From the NCBI GenBank assembly GCA_963837465.1, contig CAWINB010000004.1:266853-330852 (forward strand): a DNA stretch of 64,000 nucleotides. Direction: 5' to 3'. Numbering within the stretch: the first letter of the stretch is position 1; every line of letters begins with the position of its first letter. The translations under genes and the position numbers were made by a program. Source of the DNA: Candidatus Doudnabacteria bacterium. Its GTDB lineage: Bacteria > Patescibacteriota > Doudnabacteria > UBA920. Below the pieces are notes generated by a model, which saw only the letters and a list, made by a program, of their open reading frames with translations, did not search any database and was not told where the DNA came from. Shown here one piece after another: positions 3,016 to 63,319 of the stretch.

Positions 3016-3948
3016 GTGATTATGAATTGGACATTAGAAATCGACCCCTTATTTCAAACCGCGGGTCTAAAAACTAAGGGCACGGTCTTAATGAACGAGA
3101 ACACTTATGACTTTGACCCTAAAAATCCAAAGGACAGTTGGCTGTATCCGGTATTTTTAGGCCTTCGGGAATTAAAGAGGCAGGGTTTTACAGCTGAAAG
3201 CTTCGCGACCATTGGCACAGGATCGGGCATAGACTCCATTGGGGCGTATGAACTTTTTAGTCCAAAAGAAATTTATCAGGTAGATATACATCCCAATATA
3301 CCTGACATAGCGGACAAAAATGCCAAAGCCTTAATTCGAGGCAGGACAAAAATTAAAACATTTTTAGGTGATTTGTGCCAGCCGTTGATAAAAAGGGGTA
3401 TTAAGGTGGATTTAGCTTACGCCAACATTCCGAATATCCCGTCTCAAGAGTCCGTATTTTATAAAAAGGTCGCGGCTTCCAAGTTTATGGTCCGTGATTA
3501 CGAAGACTGTCCGGAGGTTTTTAAAAAATGGTGCTTGTCTTTGCAGTACCTGTTTTTAAAACAGGCCAAACAAATTCTTAAGCCAGGCGGCGTAGTCGTT
3601 AATGCCGTTGGCGCCCGAGTTCCGTATGAAATTCTAGAGCAGCTTTATGGCAGCTTGGGATATAAAACCAGCGAACTTACCAGCTTATACAAAATCCAAA
3701 GCGAACCGGAAGATACCTTGGCAGGATACGCCAAAGATGAAGTTGACGGGGTTGAGTTTGACTTTTACGATCACGAATTGGCTCAGCCATTTTGGCAAAA
3801 AAATTTGGAAAATAAAAACTTAAACACTCCCCGTCTAAAAGAGGCTTTAAAGCCTTTTAGGATTAGCGCCACCCAAGCCCTGTCGATTTTTGAAAATAAA
3901 GGCAAACAAGCAGGACATATTTGCGGTATTTTTAAATCAGTTCTCTAG
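3016..3948 (+). CDS. Putative class I SAM-dependent methyltransferase
   Basis: Rossmann motif I TIGTGSGIDSIGAYEL followed by an acidic residue. No precise family assignment is possible by eye. Confidence 0.4.
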   Translation: MIMNWTLEIDPLFQTAGLKTKGTVLMNENTYDFDPKNPKDSWLYPVFLGLRELKRQGFTAESFATIGTGSGIDSIGAYELFSPKEIYQVDIHPNIPDIADKNAKALIRGRTKIKTFLGDLCQPLIKRGIKVDLAYANIPNIPSQESVFYKKVAASKFMVRDYEDCPEVFKKWCLSLQYLFLKQAKQILKPGGVVVNAVGARVPYEILEQLYGSLGYKTSELTSLYKIQSEPEDTLAGYAKDEVDGVEFDFYDHELAQPFWQKNLENKNLNTPRLKEALKPFRISATQALSIFENKGKQAGHICGIFKSVL

Positions 3949-3952
3949 GTTT

Positions 3953-4858
3953 ATGCTTAAAAACATTTTACAAGCTATTGGCAATACTCCCTTAGTCCAA
4001 GTTGGTTTTGATACACCAGCCCGGGTCTTCGCTAAACTGGAATATCTAAACCCCGGCGGCAGTATTAAAGACAGATCAGCCTTATATATGGTTGAGGAGG
4101 CAGAAAAATCCGGTTTGCTAAAACCCGGGGGTACCATTATTGAGGCTTCGTCCGGAAATCAGGCTATTGCTCTGGCCATGATTGGAGCCATAAAAAAATA
4201 TAAAGTCATAATTACAGCGCCGGAAATAATTAGCCAAGAAAAACTCGCAGCTATTAAAGCTTACGGCGCGGAGGTTGTAATATGCCCAACATCAAGCTTT
4301 AGAGACCCAAAAAGTTACCATAGTTTGGCCGATAAAATTTTGGCCCAAACACCAAACAGCTTTATGCCTGACCAATATAGAAACATAAAAAACCAGGAAA
4401 CTCATTATAAGTTCACAGGGCCTGAAATTTGGGAACAAACCAAACACAAAGTCACTCATTTTTTTGCCGCGGCCGGTACCGGCGGTACGGTTAGCGGTGT
4501 TGGTAAATTTTTAAAAGAGCAAAATCCGGGTATAAAAATATTGGCTGTGGATGCGGCCGCGTCTTTTCACGCAACCAAAGGCAATCCAAAGCCTTATGCC
4601 ATAGAAAGTATGGGCATAGATTATGACTCGCCTCTTTTAAGCAACAATATTGTAGATGAATTCCTTACAGTTACGGATGAGCAAGCCTTTGATATGCTTA
4701 GAACCATGTCCCATGATTATGGATTTTTAATTGGTACCAGCAGCGGAGCAGCGGCCTTTGCTGCTGCTGAATACGCAAAAAAGTTGAACGGCGACGATTT
4801 GGCCGTTATAATTTTTGGCGATTCCGGACGGGCGTATCTTTCGAAAAATTATTATTAA
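3953..4858 (+). CDS. PLP-dependent cysteine synthase / cystathionine beta-synthase family enzyme
   Basis: PLP lysine motif GGSIKDRSALYM and glycine loop GTGGT. The start is moved to MLKNILQAIGNTPLV to avoid overlap with the upstream gene. Confidence 0.8.
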   Translation: MLKNILQAIGNTPLVQVGFDTPARVFAKLEYLNPGGSIKDRSALYMVEEAEKSGLLKPGGTIIEASSGNQAIALAMIGAIKKYKVIITAPEIISQEKLAAIKAYGAEVVICPTSSFRDPKSYHSLADKILAQTPNSFMPDQYRNIKNQETHYKFTGPEIWEQTKHKVTHFFAAAGTGGTVSGVGKFLKEQNPGIKILAVDAAASFHATKGNPKPYAIESMGIDYDSPLLSNNIVDEFLTVTDEQAFDMLRTMSHDYGFLIGTSSGAAAFAAAEYAKKLNGDDLAVIIFGDSGRAYLSKNYY

Positions 4859-4966
4859 TACTGGTTTATATACCCAATAATCATCTATAAAAAAGCTTGG
4901 CCTTAATGGGCCACGCTTTTTTAACATCACGGGAAATTTTAATTTTGTGATACAATTAAAGCAGTT

Positions 4967-5797
4967 ATGAAAAATCAACAACCCCACCACATCCACCACT
5001 ACCATCGCCATATGAGCATTAGTTATCCCGTGTCTTTGAGGCAGAGGGTTTATACGTTGCTGGTTGTGCCGGTGGTTTTGCTGGTGGCGGCTTTTTTTGT
5101 AATTTCCAGGCTGGGCGGGCACGCGGCGGCGCAGATTGCGGGTATTGGCTGGGGGTTTGTGCTTTCGGCGCTGGCTGTAACTTTTGTGCGGTTGCTTTTG
5201 GCTTATGTTTTAGCCTTGGCCCTGGCGATCCCGCTGGCTTTGCTGATTGAATATAATCCGCATGCGGAAAAAATATTTTTACCGCTGTTTGACGTAATGC
5301 AGTCCGTGCCTGTGCTGGCATTTTTCCCGGTGGTGATTATCTTTTTCGTCCACTATAATTTGTACAATTCCGCCGCGGTGTTTATTTTGCTTATTACAAT
5401 GATGTGGAGCATAATTTTTAGCGTGGTAGGCGGTTTGCGGGTTGTGCCGCAGGACATAAAAGACGCCGGCCGAGTTTTTCATATCCAGGGGTTTGATTAT
5501 TGGAAAAAAGTTTTGCTGCCCGCTGTTTTTCCTTACATTGTCACCGGCTCGCTGTTGGCCTGGGCCGGCGGCTGGAACATAATCATTGTGGCCGAAGTTT
5601 TACACACCTATATTCCCGGCGGCTCCAGCGCCCAGGATTTGTTCGGCATCGGTAGCTTGCTGGTCGCGGCCTCCGCCGGCGGCCAGCAGCGGGTATTTTT
5701 TATGACCCTGCTGGTTTTGGTGATTTTTGTGGCTCTGTTAAATTTATTCGTCTGGCAGAGACTGCTAAAGTACGCGGAGAAATTTAAGTTTGAGTAA
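4967..5797 (+). CDS. ABC transporter permease (SsuC/TauC-type)
   Basis: Multi-transmembrane protein with the binding-protein-dependent transport signature region. It is followed by its ATPase gene. Confidence 0.75.
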   Translation: MKNQQPHHIHHYHRHMSISYPVSLRQRVYTLLVVPVVLLVAAFFVISRLGGHAAAQIAGIGWGFVLSALAVTFVRLLLAYVLALALAIPLALLIEYNPHAEKIFLPLFDVMQSVPVLAFFPVVIIFFVHYNLYNSAAVFILLITMMWSIIFSVVGGLRVVPQDIKDAGRVFHIQGFDYWKKVLLPAVFPYIVTGSLLAWAGGWNIIIVAEVLHTYIPGGSSAQDLFGIGSLLVAASAGGQQRVFFMTLLVLVIFVALLNLFVWQRLLKYAEKFKFE

Positions 5798-6708: not shown

Positions 6709-6995
6709 ATCTTTCCCAGTGCTTATTCGTGCGAATAAGCACTGTATCAAACTATAATAAAATAAGCTCTGTAAAGGAGCTTATTTTATTAATGTAAGGT
6801 CGTTGTTTAAAATTATAGGCTGCATGGCCTGAAGTTCGGCCGTATAAGATAATTCGGGCAAAGGATTTAAGCAGTAGAGCTTTTTGTTTAAGACATGGGC
6901 AAAGCCCATTTCTAAAAAAGTATGTAGCCGCAAATTATGATTTTCATATGCCATTTATTATTTTTTTAATCTCTCTGTAGGATTGATCAAGGCTT

Positions 6996-7307
6996 TTAAA
7001 TAAACTCAATACGCAATCCCAGCCTGAACGCCCTGGCGATTTTTTGTAAAGTATCGGTGGTAAAATTTTGCTTACCGGCTTCCAGTCTCGCTATATTGCT
7101 TTGGGTGGTGCCAAGCTTTTTCGCGAGTTGGGATTGGGATAGCCCTTGTTTTTTACGTAATTGCAGGATTTTGTATGCAATTTGCAATTGCTTGCTAACT
7201 TCACCGTAGTATTTTTTTGCTTCGGGGTTTTTAAGAAGCTTCTCACGGTATAAGTCATAGTTAGTAGGTTTTTTATTCATACAGTTTAGTATACGGTCGT
7301 TCACCAA
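6996..7307 (-). CDS. XRE-family helix-turn-helix DNA-binding protein
   Basis: LSQSQLAKKLGTTQSNIARLEAGKQNFT is a canonical HTH_3 motif. Confidence 0.7.
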   Translation of the reverse strand: MVNDRILNCMNKKPTNYDLYREKLLKNPEAKKYYGEVSKQLQIAYKILQLRKKQGLSQSQLAKKLGTTQSNIARLEAGKQNFTTDTLQKIARAFRLGLRIEFI

Positions 7308-7334
7308 ATGTCAATCTCGCTTATCCACAAGTTT

Positions 7335-7592
7335 TTATGCCGTCAGCGTTAAAACCTGTTTTCTGTTTCTCGGCCACTTTTTTACTTCCGCTTCCCGTTT
7401 TAAAGCTTTACTCCAGGAACGGAATTTTTCATTATAAACAATTTTTCCGCCGCCGTGGGATATTACGTATTTGGAGCCTTTGCCGGAATTATGCGCCAAC
7501 TCGCGCGATTTTAAATCCCTGGTACTGCCGCAATAAAGCGTGCCATCCTTGCATTTTAAAATATAAAAGTAGAACATTTTTTTGTGGACCAT
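7335..7592 (-). CDS. Small GIY-YIG nuclease-family protein (YhbQ/UPF0213-like)
   Basis: FYFYILKCKDGTLYCGSTRDLKSRELAHNSG matches the GIY-YIG core. It is 85 aa and lies 27 nt upstream of the HTH gene on the same strand. Confidence 0.7.
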   Translation of the reverse strand: MVHKKMFYFYILKCKDGTLYCGSTRDLKSRELAHNSGKGSKYVISHGGGKIVYNEKFRSWSKALKREAEVKKWPRNRKQVLTLTA

Positions 7593-7656
7593 TTCGGCGC
7601 AGGTGAAAAATCTATTTACCTTTGGTAAAAGAGATTTACAAAAATATATTAAATTC

Positions 7657-7968
7657 TCATATAGATGGGCTTGTCTTTGTTTCTGAAAATAATCCTGGTT
7701 GAGGCTTTTCAGCCATCTTAGTCAGGGCATGGTCAATAGCTTTGGTATAGGCTGTCGGTTGAAACCTAAGAGCTATATGCGTTCCTGGGAGCGGATAAAA
7801 ACCGTCCACACTATTTTTTGTAAGCTTATTGTGAATTTTTTCAGTCGGAACTATTTTGCTGTCCACAGAGTGAATGATTGATATTTTGATTCCCTTGGCT
7901 CTTAAATCAGCTATAAGTTTTTCTGCATCGGCCGCGGCTATTGCCTTTACGGCACCGTTCCTAGCTTA
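7657..7968 (-). pseudogene. C-terminal remnant of an alpha/beta hydrolase gene
   Basis: The minus-strand frame is open from a stop at about 7968 and reads ...SIIHSVDSKIVP...GTHIALRFQP, which resembles a hydrolase C-terminus carrying the catalytic His. The N-terminal two thirds are missing. Confidence 0.45.
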
Positions 7969-8040
7969 GGTAATAATTTATACAGCTTTCAAGAAAAAGT
8001 ACACTGGAGAGTGTCTGGGTGATTGGAGGATATACCGGTA

Positions 8041-8757
8041 TTAGCAATTAACATACTTAATGGGAAACTGCGCCCCCTTTGCAAAATATTTATCTACCTT
8101 ACCTGGAATGTATTTGTCCCTTATGTCTTGATTGCCTTTAATAGCACTAAACCGCCAGCGTTCCTTTTCTTTTATATAAGACCAAGCTTGTATTTGATAA
8201 ATTTCCTTAACGAGTCCTCTATAAACTGCAAAAGCAAATTGAGGTTGGATAATATGGCGTTTTGGATTAACTGGCCAATCGCCACGAGTAATATTATATA
8301 AGTCGGCTGAAGACATTTCACGATTATAGGTGCGATTTAAGTTTATTAAGATGCTTGGCTCTTCAATTTCTTTTTCCTGTGCCGAATATTTTTCAATAAC
8401 ATCGTAATCGGTCATTTTCCCACGATCGTCAGATTCGTGACCCATTACCATATTGCCTGGGAGATTTTTAAGACCAACAAAATCAATCAAAGCCGCCTCA
8501 ACTTCAAAGGCTTCTTTTTCTGTTAAGCCGTGTCGTATTATGCTATGCCTAACTTGTTGTCCCGAATTAATAATGTCTAATATAATCTTATGATTGGAGC
8601 TTTTAATAGCCTCCTTCTCTACCTCTCGTGCATGGTTATAAACTCTATTTCCTAAACCTTTGCCAATATAAAAGGCATCGCCACTGTCTGGATTCTCCAA
8701 GCAGTAAACATAATATTTTAATCTTTCAATAACGGATTGTGAGAATTTTTTTGACAT
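8041..8757 (-). CDS. GIY-YIG domain protein with an uncharacterized C-terminal domain
   Basis: N-terminus YYVYCLENPDSGDAFYIGKGLGNRVYNH is a GIY-YIG motif. The protein is 238 aa. Confidence 0.6.
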   Translation of the reverse strand: MSKKFSQSVIERLKYYVYCLENPDSGDAFYIGKGLGNRVYNHAREVEKEAIKSSNHKIILDIINSGQQVRHSIIRHGLTEKEAFEVEAALIDFVGLKNLPGNMVMGHESDDRGKMTDYDVIEKYSAQEKEIEEPSILINLNRTYNREMSSADLYNITRGDWPVNPKRHIIQPQFAFAVYRGLVKEIYQIQAWSYIKEKERWRFSAIKGNQDIRDKYIPGKVDKYFAKGAQFPIKYVNC

Positions 8758-8829
8758 ACAAAAAGGGCCACCCCGGGTTGTTTGGAAAAGTGATTTTCAA
8801 GCGATTGCAAATCGTACTAGATTGCAACC

Positions 8830-8903
8830 TGGTGGACCTGGGGGGAATCGGACCCCCGCCTCGGCAATGCGAATGCCGCGTAATACCACTTTACTACAGG
8901 CCC
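8830..8903 (-). tRNA. tRNA-Ala (anticodon CGC), CCA encoded
   Basis: Hand-folded cloverleaf on the minus strand: acceptor GGGCCUG with the G3:U70 Ala identity pair, anticodon loop UUCGCAU, T-arm GGGGG/CCCCC. Confidence 0.8.
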
Positions 8904-8905
8904 AT

Positions 8906-8945
8906 GTTGGAATTTTCCGCCGGAGGCGGATCCGCCTCCGGCGGA
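8906..8945. repeat. GGATCC-centred perfect palindrome, copy a (ttttCCGCCGGAGGCGGATCCGCCTCCGGCGGaaa)
   Basis: 28-bp perfect palindrome with ttttcc/ggaaa flanks. The same element recurs at 12343, 35046 and 62629. Confidence 0.85.
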
Positions 8946-9102
8946 AAGATTTAGGATTTATGATTTGAAGATTTCCGTTTTCGCCAGGAATTCGCAGGAC
9001 AAGCCTTGCGCCATTGAAGATTTAGGATTTGCAAACCACCGCATAATTTTAGCCGATTATGCTAAAGTAGTAAACCCCGCGGCAAATCCGCGCTCGTATT
9101 TT

Positions 9103-24369: not shown

Positions 24370-24459
24370 GGAGAGGTGCGAGAGTGGTTGAATCGGACGG
24401 TCTCGAAAACCGTTAGCTCCGCAAGGGGCTCGAGGGTTCGAATCCCTCCCTCTCCGCCA
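24370..24459 (+). tRNA. tRNA-Ser (anticodon CGA), long variable arm, CCA encoded
   Basis: Acceptor GGAGAGG/CCUCUCC, anticodon loop CUCGAAA, extended variable stem. Confidence 0.8.
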
Positions 24460-24541: not shown

Positions 24542-24685
24542 ATGTTTTACGTTTACAGTTTAAAATGCAGAGAAGGGTGCTATATTGGTTGTACTGATGA
24601 CTTGAAAGACAATTGGGCTGATAAAAAATTTGTTGAAGATTGGGATAATGTTACTTCTAAAGGGAACCCGACCAGACCTGAATAG
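24542..24685 (+). pseudogene. Truncated GIY-YIG (YhbQ-like) gene fragment next to tRNA-Ser
   Basis: 48-codon ORF MFYVYSLKCREGCYIGCTDDLKDNW... keeps only the first GIY-YIG half-motif. Confidence 0.4.
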
Positions 24686-24719: not shown

Positions 24720-24914
24720 ATGAATCCGGAAGCTCGAATAGGTTGCGGCTCCGGGCAGGCAGAGGAAATTATTTTTAGGAAGTGTCCTCAGGCAAAAATA
24801 ATTGGCGTCGATTCTTCGGGGCCGATGCTGGAAATTGCCCAAAAAAGATTGGCTGATAATCAAAACTTTCAAGCCGTAAACAAAGACGTCTCGAAATTAA
24901 AATTTAATCTATGA
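24720..24914 (+). pseudogene. Fragment of a SAM-dependent methyltransferase gene
   Basis: GCGSGQAEEII...IIGVDSSGPMLEIAQKRL is motif I/II of a class I methyltransferase. The ORF is only 64 aa. Confidence 0.4.
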
Positions 24915-62269: not shown

Positions 62270-63319
62270 ATGCCTACACATGAATTCATCGTCGAAGCCT
62301 TAAAAACGCGCCTGGATAAATATCTCGCGGAGCAAATAAAAGATATTTCCAGGAGCCGGATTCAGCGCGACATAGAGGGTGGCCTTGTGGAGGTTAACGG
62401 GGAATTGATTACAGAAAGCAAATTTGTAGTCAGGCTGGATGACAAAATAGCTTACAGGCAATCGGCAGACAGCAATCGGCAGACAGGACTTAAGCCTACA
62501 GATACTCCGCTGAGGATTTTATACAATAACCACGGCCTGCTCATTGTAGACAAGCCAGCAGGATTAACGGTTCATCCGGGAGCCGGGTTTAAAGGGGAGA
62601 CTTTGGCCAGCGCGCTTTTGTATCATTTTTCCGCCGGAGGCGGATCCGCCTCCGGCGGAAAAAATATCCACTTAGTCGGCGAGGAGCACCGGCCGGGGAT
62701 TGTGCACAGGCTTGATAAAGATACCAGCGGCGTAATTTTGGTGGCCGCTACCCAGGAAATGTACGAACATTTAAAAAACGCTTTCGCGGAACGCAAAGTA
62801 AAAAAAGAATACATAGCCTTGGTTTCCGGCCGGGTGGAAAAGCCGCACGGGTTTATAGAAGCGCCCATTGGCAAAAGCAAAACAGATTTTAGGAAACAGA
62901 CTGCGAAAAATCCGGTGGAGGGCAAGGAGGCGGTAACTGAGTATAAAGTTCTGGAGTATTTAAATCAGAAAAATCGGAAAATCGGAGAATCGGAAAGCTC
63001 GGATCCGACTTCCGATGTATCTGATTTTTCCGATAAATCCGGTGTTGACACTTACACCCTAATTCTGGTAAAATTGCATACAGGCAGAACGCATCAAATT
63101 CGGGTGCATATGGCATTTATTGGACATCCGCTTATGGGCGACAGCTTATACGGCGGGAAAAGAGGTTTTTTAAAAAATCTTACAAGACAATTCCTGCACG
63201 CTAAAAAAATAGAAGTTCAGTTGCCGGACGATTCCTGGATAGAAGCAGAGTCAGAATTTCCGGATGATCTTAAAAAAGTTTTGATTGGGTTAAACAGTAA
63301 AGTTGTTAAACAATTATAA
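62270..63319 (+). CDS. RluA-family (RluD-like) pseudouridine synthase carrying two in-frame insertions
   Basis: S4-like N-terminus and catalytic HRLDKDTSG. Inserts at aa about 119-133 (palindrome copy d) and aa about 232-262 (Ser/Asp-rich). Confidence 0.8.
   Translation: MPTHEFIVEALKTRLDKYLAEQIKDISRSRIQRDIEGGLVEVNGELITESKFVVRLDDKIAYRQSADSNRQTGLKPTDTPLRILYNNHGLLIVDKPAGLTVHPGAGFKGETLASALLYHFSAGGGSASGGKNIHLVGEEHRPGIVHRLDKDTSGVILVAATQEMYEHLKNAFAERKVKKEYIALVSGRVEKPHGFIEAPIGKSKTDFRKQTAKNPVEGKEAVTEYKVLEYLNQKNRKIGESESSDPTSDVSDFSDKSGVDTYTLILVKLHTGRTHQIRVHMAFIGHPLMGDSLYGGKRGFLKNLTRQFLHAKKIEVQLPDDSWIEAESEFPDDLKKVLIGLNSKVVKQL
62629..62662. repeat. GGATCC-centred perfect palindrome, copy d, inside a coding sequence
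   Basis: ttttCCGCCGGAGGCGGATCCGCCTCCGGCGGaaaa, encoding FSAGGGSASGGK in frame. Confidence 0.85.

Follow-up and report, generated by a model that had tools for sequence, protein, structure and literature searches.

We analysed a 64-kb stretch of DNA from a Candidatus Doudnabacteria bacterium, 64,000 nucleotides (nt) in all and called the window below. Within it we concentrated on a patch beside the gene for tRNA-Ala(CGC), in which two different GIY-YIG nuclease genes lie near a gene for a helix-turn-helix (HTH) protein of the XRE type. The patch is an ordinary variable hot spot, neither one island nor a new toxin-antitoxin (TA) or homing module. We consider it likely that we are dealing with a small variable segment on a conserved backbone, comprising an acquired defence gene of the CMoRE type, a conserved UPF0213 gene with a second, decayed copy, an orphan antitoxin gene and two pseudogenes. 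The backbone consists of RlmH, a pilin, tRNA-Ala(CGC), the UPF0213 GIY-YIG gene and an ABC transporter. For comparison, we used DNA stretches of other genomes and metagenomes, labelled L001-L162.

On the minus strand and from high to low coordinates, tRNA-Ala(CGC) is followed by an open reading frame (ORF) of 238 amino acids (aa), the remnant of a hydrolase gene, the small GIY-YIG gene (hereafter GIY-80), the XRE gene and a 57-aa ORF. Beyond the latter lie two hairpins and then a convergent ABC-transporter ATPase gene. The tRNA-Ala(CGC) gene itself (8830-8903, minus strand), the conserved anchor of the locus, was found by ARAGORN and scored 64 bits with Rfam; tRNAs were the sole RNA families that the Rfam scan of the window detected. 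All features described in the initial annotation were present, namely tRNA-Ala, the XRE gene, both GIY-YIG ORFs, the remnant, a fragment at tRNA-Ser and a palindrome. Its domain calls were also right: both nucleases are GIY-YIG proteins in Pfam, the smaller one is of the YhbQ-like type (1zg2/1ywl) and the XRE protein carries an HTH (HTH_3). Its description of the whole as a "junk island" captured the decay that is indeed visible but went too far, as the two nuclease genes and the XRE gene of the patch are intact.

The larger of the two nucleases is encoded by the 238-aa ORF (8041-8757, minus strand). PD-T4-3, renamed CMoRE, is a single-gene type IV restriction endonuclease degrading DNA that contains 5-hydroxymethylcytosine (5hmC) or glucosyl-5hmC (PMC12923530). 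It is known from E. coli ECOR68, APEC O1 and O157:H7 and from the PDB entries 9U7U and 9U75, and a survey of it covers 84 genera (PMC12923530). An N-terminal GIYxY-YIG nuclease domain is combined with a C-terminal modified-base sensor and, in most members, with an acidic autoinhibitory loop; the motif residues are Y17, Y19 and Y31, and Y127 contacts 5hmC (PMC12923530). Protection against T-even-type phages and assembly into a tetramer are further properties of the family.

Sequence comparison and a structural model both show that the 238-aa protein is a full-length member of this family, although its regulatory loop is a variant one. Pfam assigns the N-terminal part to the GIY-YIG domain family PF22945 (E 1.1e-13). 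Along residues 3-193 it matched positions 4-190 of the 256 of the PADLOC PD-T4-3 profile PDLC04031 (E 3.9e-44); it also matched phrog_5356 (E 6.7e-48) and, in a phmmer search, the solved PD-T4-3 structures 9u75 (9u75_A) and 9u7u (E 1.5e-24). An AlphaFold2 (AF2) model built on an alignment of 52 members reached a pLDDT of 86.5 and a pTM of 0.78. The top Foldseek matches of this model were four PD-T4-3 entries, including 9u75, 9u7u and 9u7z (E 1e-17, about 264 columns). The global TM-score against these entries was only about 0.45, a value consistent with the flexible linker between the domains described in PMC12923530. UvrC and I-TevI GIY-YIG domains came next, and YTH-type modified-base readers appeared as weak matches well below them. 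The C-terminus, which the initial annotation had left as an unknown domain, is, according to profile, phmmer and Foldseek comparison, the base-sensing domain of CMoRE.

The residues expected of such an enzyme are in place. Y16, Y18 and Y30 are invariant among the 52 family members and align to chain residues 22, 24 and 36 (Y17, Y19 and Y31 in native numbering). Likewise invariant in the 52 are the catalytic Arg and Glu residues R38, E85 and E87, which align to GNRVF and YEVEAAL of 9u75. Y124, conserved in at least 90% of the 52 members, aligns to chain residue Y132, the native sensor residue Y127. The regulatory loop is where the protein departs from the E. coli enzyme. The DDDD lid of the autoinhibitory acidic loop is absent, and the loop AREVEKEAIKSS holds three acidic and three basic residues, with a net charge of 0 and a longest acidic run of 1; a three-residue alignment gap shows it to be shorter than the E. 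coli loop. Acidic runs of three or more in the lid loop were present in only 3 of 52 members of the environmental clade.

By homology, the C-terminal domain would flip out and sense a cytosine that carries a modification; for the E. coli enzymes, this base is 5hmC or glucosyl-5hmC. The GIYxY-YIG domain would then cut the modified phage DNA, and unmodified host DNA would be spared. The modification specificity of the 238-aa nuclease itself is suggested here by analogy with these enzymes. The system consists of a single component, in that the homology to its nearest relative covers the gene plus 85 nt and it is flanked by a tRNA gene on one side and a pseudogene on the other. In the best 120 of 298 full-length homologues, identity was at most 51%, except for one at 77%. 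The same 120 show a patchy family spread over unrelated phyla at 45-51% identity, with Anaerolineae, Peptococcaceae, a Microbulbifer species and unclassified bacteria as named hosts.

The gene came with a cassette whose limits can be drawn closely. Its closest homologue (77% identity, L001) sits amid restriction-modification genes in an unrelated context. In a blastn comparison of the window with L001, homology (76.6% identity over 808 columns) was confined to 8751-7956 and ended at the start of the hydrolase remnant, so that the acquired cassette (7956-8751, minus strand) amounts to the CMoRE gene and an 85-nt 3' tail. The GC content of the cassette is 0.367, against a mean of 0.446 (standard deviation 0.036) for the ORFs of the window. 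In relatives, the CMoRE gene is missing from the equivalent position.

The hydrolase remnant (7657-7959, minus strand; about 85-100 codons) gave no match in Pfam, NCBIfam, PADLOC or a word-indexed homology search, and an exhaustive HMMER search alone resolved its identity. It corresponds to the last 85 or so residues of proteins of about 300 aa, the best being P0241 (E 8.9e-23, 55% identity, residues 213-297 of 301), and Abhydrolase_1 was found in seven of the eight full-length homologues scanned. The call of a truncated alpha/beta hydrolase in the initial annotation was therefore right. The nucleophile-bearing N-terminal two-thirds are gone, there is no proper start, and the first in-frame start leaves 69 aa. 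The limitation of the homology to 8751-7956, directly abutting the remnant, the low GC content and the identity of the remnant as the C-terminus of a hydrolase together indicate that the cassette overwrote the hydrolase gene: a one-gene cassette of about 0.8 kb came in and replaced the 5' two-thirds of that gene. The order of events at the patch, like the expression of any of its genes, is inferred.

The second nuclease gene, GIY-80, belongs to the backbone. The 85-aa ORF (7335-7592) matched the GIY-YIG family PF01541 over residues 6-76 (E 2e-16) and the solved UPF0213 proteins 1zg2 (E 1.8e-12) and 1ywl (E 5.8e-12). Homologues, 65-86% identical, begin at Met6, and the likely gene is for this reason the 80-aa version (7335-7577, minus strand), extendable to 7592. 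Y5, Y15, G17, R25, H29, N30 and E62 are invariant over 39 homologues, including distant ones; the catalytic residues Y5, Y15, R25, H29 and E62 are thus all retained. GIY-80 is an intact gene of the UPF0213/YhbQ type and is conserved in the lineage. The small GIY-YIG gene had been placed as an 85-aa gene 27 nt upstream of the XRE gene. The adjacency holds; the length and the distance become 80 aa and 54 nt when the starts of the homologues are followed, since homologues of the XRE protein favour the ATG at 7280 (54-nt gap to the GIY-80 stop) and it is the TTG start that gives 27 nt.

A few observations concern the record of this gene. The small GIY-YIG protein of this strain was absent from a collection of 5.8 billion proteins, where the best match was 86% identical. 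In the Logan contig L162, which is identical to the window, the only genes called there are those for CMoRE and XRE. GIY-80 seems to be unannotated in public records, perhaps owing to an overlapping 89-aa antisense ORF (7337-7606, plus strand).

The synteny of tRNA-Ala(CGC) and GIY-80 was found in at least seven related metagenome-assembled genomes, most of them labelled Doudnabacteria (L002, L004, L005, L010, L011, L017 and L019). These seven were found by searching with the GIY gene itself, so that the sampling covers presences. The shared order is tRNA-Pro(cgg), tRNA-Ala(ggc), tRNA-Arg(cct), an O-antigen-ligase-like gene, RlmH, an optional pilin, tRNA-Ala(cgc) and GIY-80. In the seven genomes, the identity of GIY-80 (66-84%) tracks that of RlmH (71-78%). 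From tRNA to GIY gene the gap measures 47-393 nt in five of the seven loci and 1253 nt in the window, where the CMoRE cassette and the hydrolase remnant lie inside it. This interval is variably filled among the relatives, and its cargo there was not consistently made up of defence genes; it includes ORFs of unknown function and a DsrE-like protein.

A second conserved site lies at tRNA-Ser(CGA), in the window at 24370-24459 on the plus strand. The order RNase HII, tRNA-Ser(cga), GIY-80 occurs in L012, L013, L015, L016 and L020; in L009, GIY-80 also follows tRNA-Ser(cga), and RNase HII was not found there. In the window, RNase HII and tRNA-Ser(cga) are followed by a 24-codon stub and a methyltransferase fragment. 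The stub is a 47-codon ORF (24542-24685, plus strand) that begins 82 nt past the tRNA, in the position of the intact copies in the six other genomes. Only its first 24 or so codons are recognisable, covering the first beta-hairpin (FYVYSLKC..YIGCTDDLK), and the catalytic Arg, His and Glu are absent. It had been described as a truncated YhbQ-like fragment, which is borne out by 58% identity to residues 1-24 of the small GIY-YIG protein (tblastn, E 4e-4 within the window); the stub had no Pfam match, and the alignment shows its positional homology to the intact copies. The 64-aa fragment of a SAM-dependent methyltransferase (24720-24914, plus strand; Methyltransf_25, E 1e-9, profile positions 4-60 of 97) is a further sign of decay at this site. 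In a neighbour-joining tree of the short GIY proteins, the copies largely group by tRNA site. The synteny, the RlmH-like divergence and a location that follows the phylogeny of the gene itself indicate that GIY-80 was inherited vertically. It thus appears, from these sequence comparisons, to have been passed on next to tRNA-Ala(CGC); that it is a "housekeeping" gene cannot be asserted.

Several side observations concern these sites. In L015 and L020, the GIY gene begins 15-16 nt past tRNA-Ser(cga) (at 2181 and 5001, respectively), a spacing that leaves no room for a promoter of its own and suggests co-transcription with the tRNA. More UPF0213 copies stand by other tRNAs, at tRNA-Pro(cgg) in L005 (974-1192, minus strand) and at tRNA-Glu(ttc) in L018 (2381-2581). 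Between tRNA-Ala(CGC) and GIY-80, L010 has a second, distinct small GIY-YIG gene (4672-4998; 108 aa, MTIKFHYVYILRS...; PF01541, E 2e-18), of which L004 has a truncated 74-aa version in the same place (582-806). L010 further carries an intact methyltransferase of 230 aa after GIY-80. The tRNA-Ala(CGC) gene points away from GIY-80 in L002, L005 and L019 and towards it in L004, L010, L011, L017 and the window, with the same neighbours throughout (RlmH or the pilin gene on one side, GIY-80 on the other); it seems that this gene has flipped several times without its surroundings. In L021, a 1.5-kb AbiEi/AbiEii cassette (type IV TA/abortive infection) lies between direct repeats of 51 nt (3446-3496 and 5000-5050, 82% identical) that match codons 1-17 of the UPF0213 gene. 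The arrangement gives the impression that an incoming cassette with a GIY copy of its own recombined into the resident one.

How far does the association with tRNA genes extend? A scan of one genome per species for UPF0213 yielded 80 loci. Among 35 copies in Patescibacteria, 13 had a tRNA gene no more than 300 nt away and 18 had one no more than 500 nt away, in at least eight different tRNA contexts. For the base rate of such proximity we arrive at about 10% or less, which is an estimate from some 45 tRNA genes and 900 genes per genome and not a measurement. Sampled UPF0213 homologues from Bacillota had no tRNA linkage. In the literature on YhbQ, on UPF0213 and on a linkage of GIY-YIG and tRNA genes in Patescibacteria we found nothing relevant. 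One may picture UPF0213 genes as systematically anchored at tRNA genes in Patescibacteria (Ala-CGC, Ser-CGA, Glu, Pro, Lys and others). The interval between tRNA and nuclease would then be a slot for the exchange of cassettes with defence and addiction genes (CMoRE here, AbiE in L021, Gp49-HigA in L005, L006 and L021), and the nuclease would either create the hot spot in a homing-like manner or act on the tRNA or the DNA of its gene. Taken as a whole, this picture strikes us as rather unlikely.

A narrower version would make the UPF0213 genes free-standing homing-like nucleases that target tRNA-adjacent DNA and so create the hot spot for cassette exchange, in the manner of T4 SegB. The tRNA proximity just described speaks for it, as do the small GIY-YIG genes of two distinct families that neighbour each other at tRNA-Ala(CGC) in L010 and L004, the AbiEi/AbiEii cassette bracketed by a repeat of the GIY 5' end in L021 and the N-terminal GIY stub at tRNA-Ser in the window. 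SegB is a homing endonuclease of the GIY-YIG type whose gene lies in a cluster of tRNA genes (PMC2330249). Against this stand the pattern of vertical inheritance, with a divergence matching that of rlmH and a location following the gene's own phylogeny, the Bacillota homologues without tRNA linkage and the cargo of the interval, which is not consistently defence-related. Moreover, GIY-80 is a bare catalytic domain of 80 aa with no DNA-binding domain; Seg proteins are larger and carry such domains. A homing-like or tRNA-related role of UPF0213 is possible, yet vertical inheritance and the lack of a DNA-binding domain argue against a classical homing endonuclease, and we regard homing as the cause of the hot spot as unlikely.

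The variable patch that we favour instead contains further traces of decay. At its low-coordinate end, the 57-aa ORF (6781-6954, minus strand) is a pseudogene of a 137-aa protein, as recognised by tblastn with the intact gene of L021 (L021:5913-6326). Residues 1-9 align at 6947-6921 and residues 91-136 at 6924-6787, with 80% identity and in different frames; about codons 10-90 have been deleted and the frame has shifted. The intact gene of L021 is flanked by the XRE and ABC ATPase genes, which is the position of the pseudogene in the window. The protein family had no significant match in Pfam, NCBIfam or PDB sequence searches.

One could read the whole of 6750-8830 as the decayed remains of a single integrative island, brought in through site-specific recombination at the 3' end of tRNA-Ala(CGC). 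The segment does adjoin the tRNA gene, holds cargo of the defence and TA type along with pseudogenes, and has a somewhat low GC content (0.35-0.42). All ORFs of 6750-8830 are accounted for, however, and none is a recombinase or integrase. Around the cassette there were neither att-like direct repeats nor a duplicated tRNA 3' end, and the 16 families of direct repeats all have the look of short matches due to chance. In relatives, the syntenic backbone includes GIY-80, the 137-aa gene and the ABC ATPase gene; homology to a foreign cassette covers only about 0.8 kb, and the tRNA is oppositely oriented beside the same GIY gene in several relatives. A single island is thus quite improbable. The initial annotation had proposed repeated insertion and decay beside tRNA genes, and this part largely stands: the cassette, the loss of a toxin gene discussed below, the internal deletion, the stub at tRNA-Ser and the variable interval all fit it, with no integrase or att repeats accompanying them.

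The XRE gene (6996-7280, minus strand, 94 aa; the version with a TTG start reaches 7307) encodes a protein matching HTH_3 (E 1.3e-16) and HTH_37 (E 8.9e-07) in Pfam. Toxin-first type II TA pairs of Gp49 and HTH_37/HigA are established (PMC7157771), and orphan antitoxins are frequent (PMC7192599). The 20 closest homologues, 47-69% identical, come from metagenomic loci. In 17 of the 20, a Gp49-like ORF precedes the XRE gene, mostly of 116-139 aa and in one case cut by the contig end; for five of these 17, PF05973 was confirmed (E 1e-20 to 1e-24). The other three have a truncated toxin, an apparent small ORF of the RelE/ParE type (by eye) and a contig edge, respectively. None of the 20 has a GIY-YIG gene upstream. 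In one locus (L094, 1452-1619), the XRE homologue is preceded by an N-terminal Gp49-like stub of 55 aa, a case of independent toxin decay with the antitoxin kept. In the window, tblastn with three Gp49 toxins returned nothing better than E 0.16 over the 64 kb.

In the relatives L005, L006 and L021, the order is GIY-80, a 26-nt motif, a Gp49/PF05973 toxin gene and a 90-aa XRE gene. The motif TTGACnnnnnGTRAACGAnnGTATAC lies just 3' of the GIY-80 coding region and is kept in all three; in the window it reads TTGACATTTGGTGAACGACCGTATAC (7289-7314, minus strand) and occurs once, with none expected by chance. It contains a -35-like hexamer, and its spacer to TATACT is 15 nt, which explains why a scan for consensus promoters does not include it; the count of promoter-like sites in the window was within about 2 standard deviations of that in shuffled sequences. 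Presumably the motif is the promoter or operator of a former TA operon. In the window, the start codon of the XRE gene follows some 8 nt past the motif (7314-7289), and the toxin gene is absent between them; if transcription begins at the motif, this spacing predicts a leaderless mRNA. The XRE protein is accordingly the HigA-like antitoxin of a toxin-first Gp49(RelE/ParE)-HigA operon whose toxin gene was lost and whose old promoter motif was left behind. It is probably still a repressor and possibly an anti-addiction factor.

The initial annotation had seen in GIY-80 and the XRE gene a two-gene TA or homing-type selfish module, with the nuclease as the toxin and the HTH protein as its antidote or regulator. 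The two genes are indeed adjacent on the same strand, 27-54 nt apart, and the GIY gene holds the toxin-first position typical of HigBA-type operons; the TA promoter motif is found directly downstream of GIY-80 in four genomes, and orphan-looking antitoxins sometimes mark new toxins (PMC7192599). The neighbourhoods in relatives do not bear the pairing out. In L005, L006 and L021, the Gp49 toxin gene comes between the two, Gp49, and in no case a GIY-YIG protein, is the partner of the closest XRE homologues, and HTH_3 was found in 3 of the 76 immediate downstream neighbours of UPF0213 genes (76 genomes), two of the three being apparently large MurA-type proteins on the opposite strand. GIY-80 is syntenic without the XRE gene in L002, L010, L011, L017 and L019; the YhbQ-like gene is conserved in synteny and unlinked to HTH genes in most relatives, which is largely the outcome that the initial annotation had named as speaking against its proposal. 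The conserved motif between GIY-80 and the XRE gene further suggests a separate start of XRE transcription. We therefore judge a functional module of the two genes to be very improbable. As for the idea that the 238-aa protein serves in housekeeping repair, for instance as an N-terminal fragment of UvrC, the nearest structural match of its GIY-YIG domain apart from the PD-T4-3 entries, it has next to no chance of being correct, as the UvrC matches span about 90 residues only (E about 1e-2), the homology to PD-T4-3 is full length and includes the C-terminal sensor domain, and the family is patchy across phyla with the gene absent here in relatives.

Some findings weigh against our preferred reading of an acquired CMoRE gene, a backbone UPF0213 gene and an orphan antitoxin, and we gather them here. 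With the E. coli CMoRE that has been characterised, the 238-aa protein shares no more than about 29% identity. With its acidic lid missing, regulation and substrate could differ from those of the E. coli enzyme. To our knowledge, no phage of Patescibacteria containing 5hmC has been described. GIY-80 is missing from both public gene calls for the strain and has no obvious Shine-Dalgarno sequence, so that it stands as a predicted gene. Despite the shared upstream motif, the XRE protein of the window shares only 35-36% identity with its counterparts in L005, L006 and L021, and in the metagenomic loci that hold the closest relatives of the window XRE, the Gp49 toxin genes are not preceded by the 26-nt motif. 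This identity and the distribution of the motif make a simple deletion of the toxin in place an incomplete account; a cassette swap must have preceded or accompanied the loss of the toxin. Finally, GIY-80 and the TA motif occur together in four genomes with differing outer flanks, which leaves room for a looser linkage of GIY and TA genes.

Two further observations lie outside the patch. A perfect 34-nt palindrome (8914-8947, without strand; inverted repeat I4, 17+17 nt, 100% complementary) lies between the pilin gene and tRNA-Ala; no such palindrome is expected by chance. As TTTTCCGCCGGAGGCGGATCCGCCTCCGGCGGAAA (34-36 nt; 8913-8947) it recurs at 62627-62662 within the ORF 62270-63319 (plus strand), which encodes a 349-aa RluD-like pseudouridine synthase; the second copy of its 28-nt core, at 62631-62658, is exact. 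In the RluD-like gene it is read in frame as FSAGGGSASGGK, to all appearances as an insertion into a loop. It was absent from all 161 fetched loci. The palindrome, which had been noted at 8906 and listed among the signs of insertion and decay, is thus present; it is a repeated element and not part of the island. Like the Rickettsia palindromic elements, it may belong to the miniature palindromic repeats that can be inserted in frame without harm to the gene. The other observation concerns MurA-like proteins (EPSP_synthase family) of about 500-517 aa with an N-terminal XRE-type HTH, which were seen, all on the minus strand, in L011 (4533-6077), L017 (5984-7507), L019 (5266-6777) and L002 (7877-9430). 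Their N-terminus reads MK..QQKIGQFIAEVRE.KGFTQ..FAK.LKTSQSAVARME.GQQN..., an unusual fusion of a cell-wall enzyme and an HTH.

The 238-aa protein adds an example from the Patescibacteria (candidate phyla radiation, CPR) to the PD-T4-3/CMoRE family and hints at modified cytosines in the DNA of phages that infect these ultra-small bacteria. A clade without the acidic lid bears on how self-toxicity is avoided and on the use of such enzymes as 5hmC tools. The patch also illustrates the turnover of accessory genes in a compact genome, with a one-gene cassette placed over a hydrolase gene, a toxin lost and its antitoxin kept, and a paralogue in decay. Its parts are of known kinds (CMoRE, UPF0213 and an orphan HigA). 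The linkage of UPF0213 and tRNA genes remains the lead and offers an inexpensive, testable approach to the function of a very widespread family of small nucleases.

Among known systems, GIY-80 can be compared with the Ssn family (cd10448), single-domain GIY-YIG nucleases that are site-specific for single-stranded DNA and flanked by NTS/SRM hairpin repeats (PMC11893778). Like these, it is small, stands alone and is without a separate DNA-binding domain; unlike them, it has UPF0213 proteins as its best structural relatives. The published degenerate SRM motif, searched as a regular expression on both strands of the 64-kb window, gave 0 matches (shuffles average 0.1). With T4 SegB (PMC2330249), GIY-80 shares the place of a GIY-YIG nuclease gene amid or next to tRNA genes, and it differs from SegB in its apparently vertical inheritance and its bare 80-aa domain. 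The closest counterparts are the UPF0213/YhbQ proteins 1ZG2 (BH0048) and 1YWL (EF2693): GIY-80 is likewise single-domain, within the family size of about 80-100 aa, and keeps all conserved catalytic positions. The repeated location beside tRNA genes sets the genes of Patescibacteria apart from the sampled Bacillota homologues, where this linkage was not seen. The XRE protein has the HigA-like N-terminal extension and the HTH of Gp49 (PF05973, RelE/ParE superfamily)-HigA modules, from which the locus in the window differs by the absence of the toxin gene, leaving an orphan antitoxin. The 238-aa protein, finally, has in common with CMoRE the two-domain architecture over its full length in a single gene, the GIYxY-YIG motif, the catalytic Arg and Glu and a Tyr equivalent to Y127, and CMoRE is its top match by profile, by sequence and by fold. 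It differs in its length (238 aa against about 257 aa), in its identity of about 29% and in its host among the Patescibacteria, and its alpha2-alpha3 lid is shorter than that of the E. coli enzyme and without the DDDD run, as is typical of the environmental clade.

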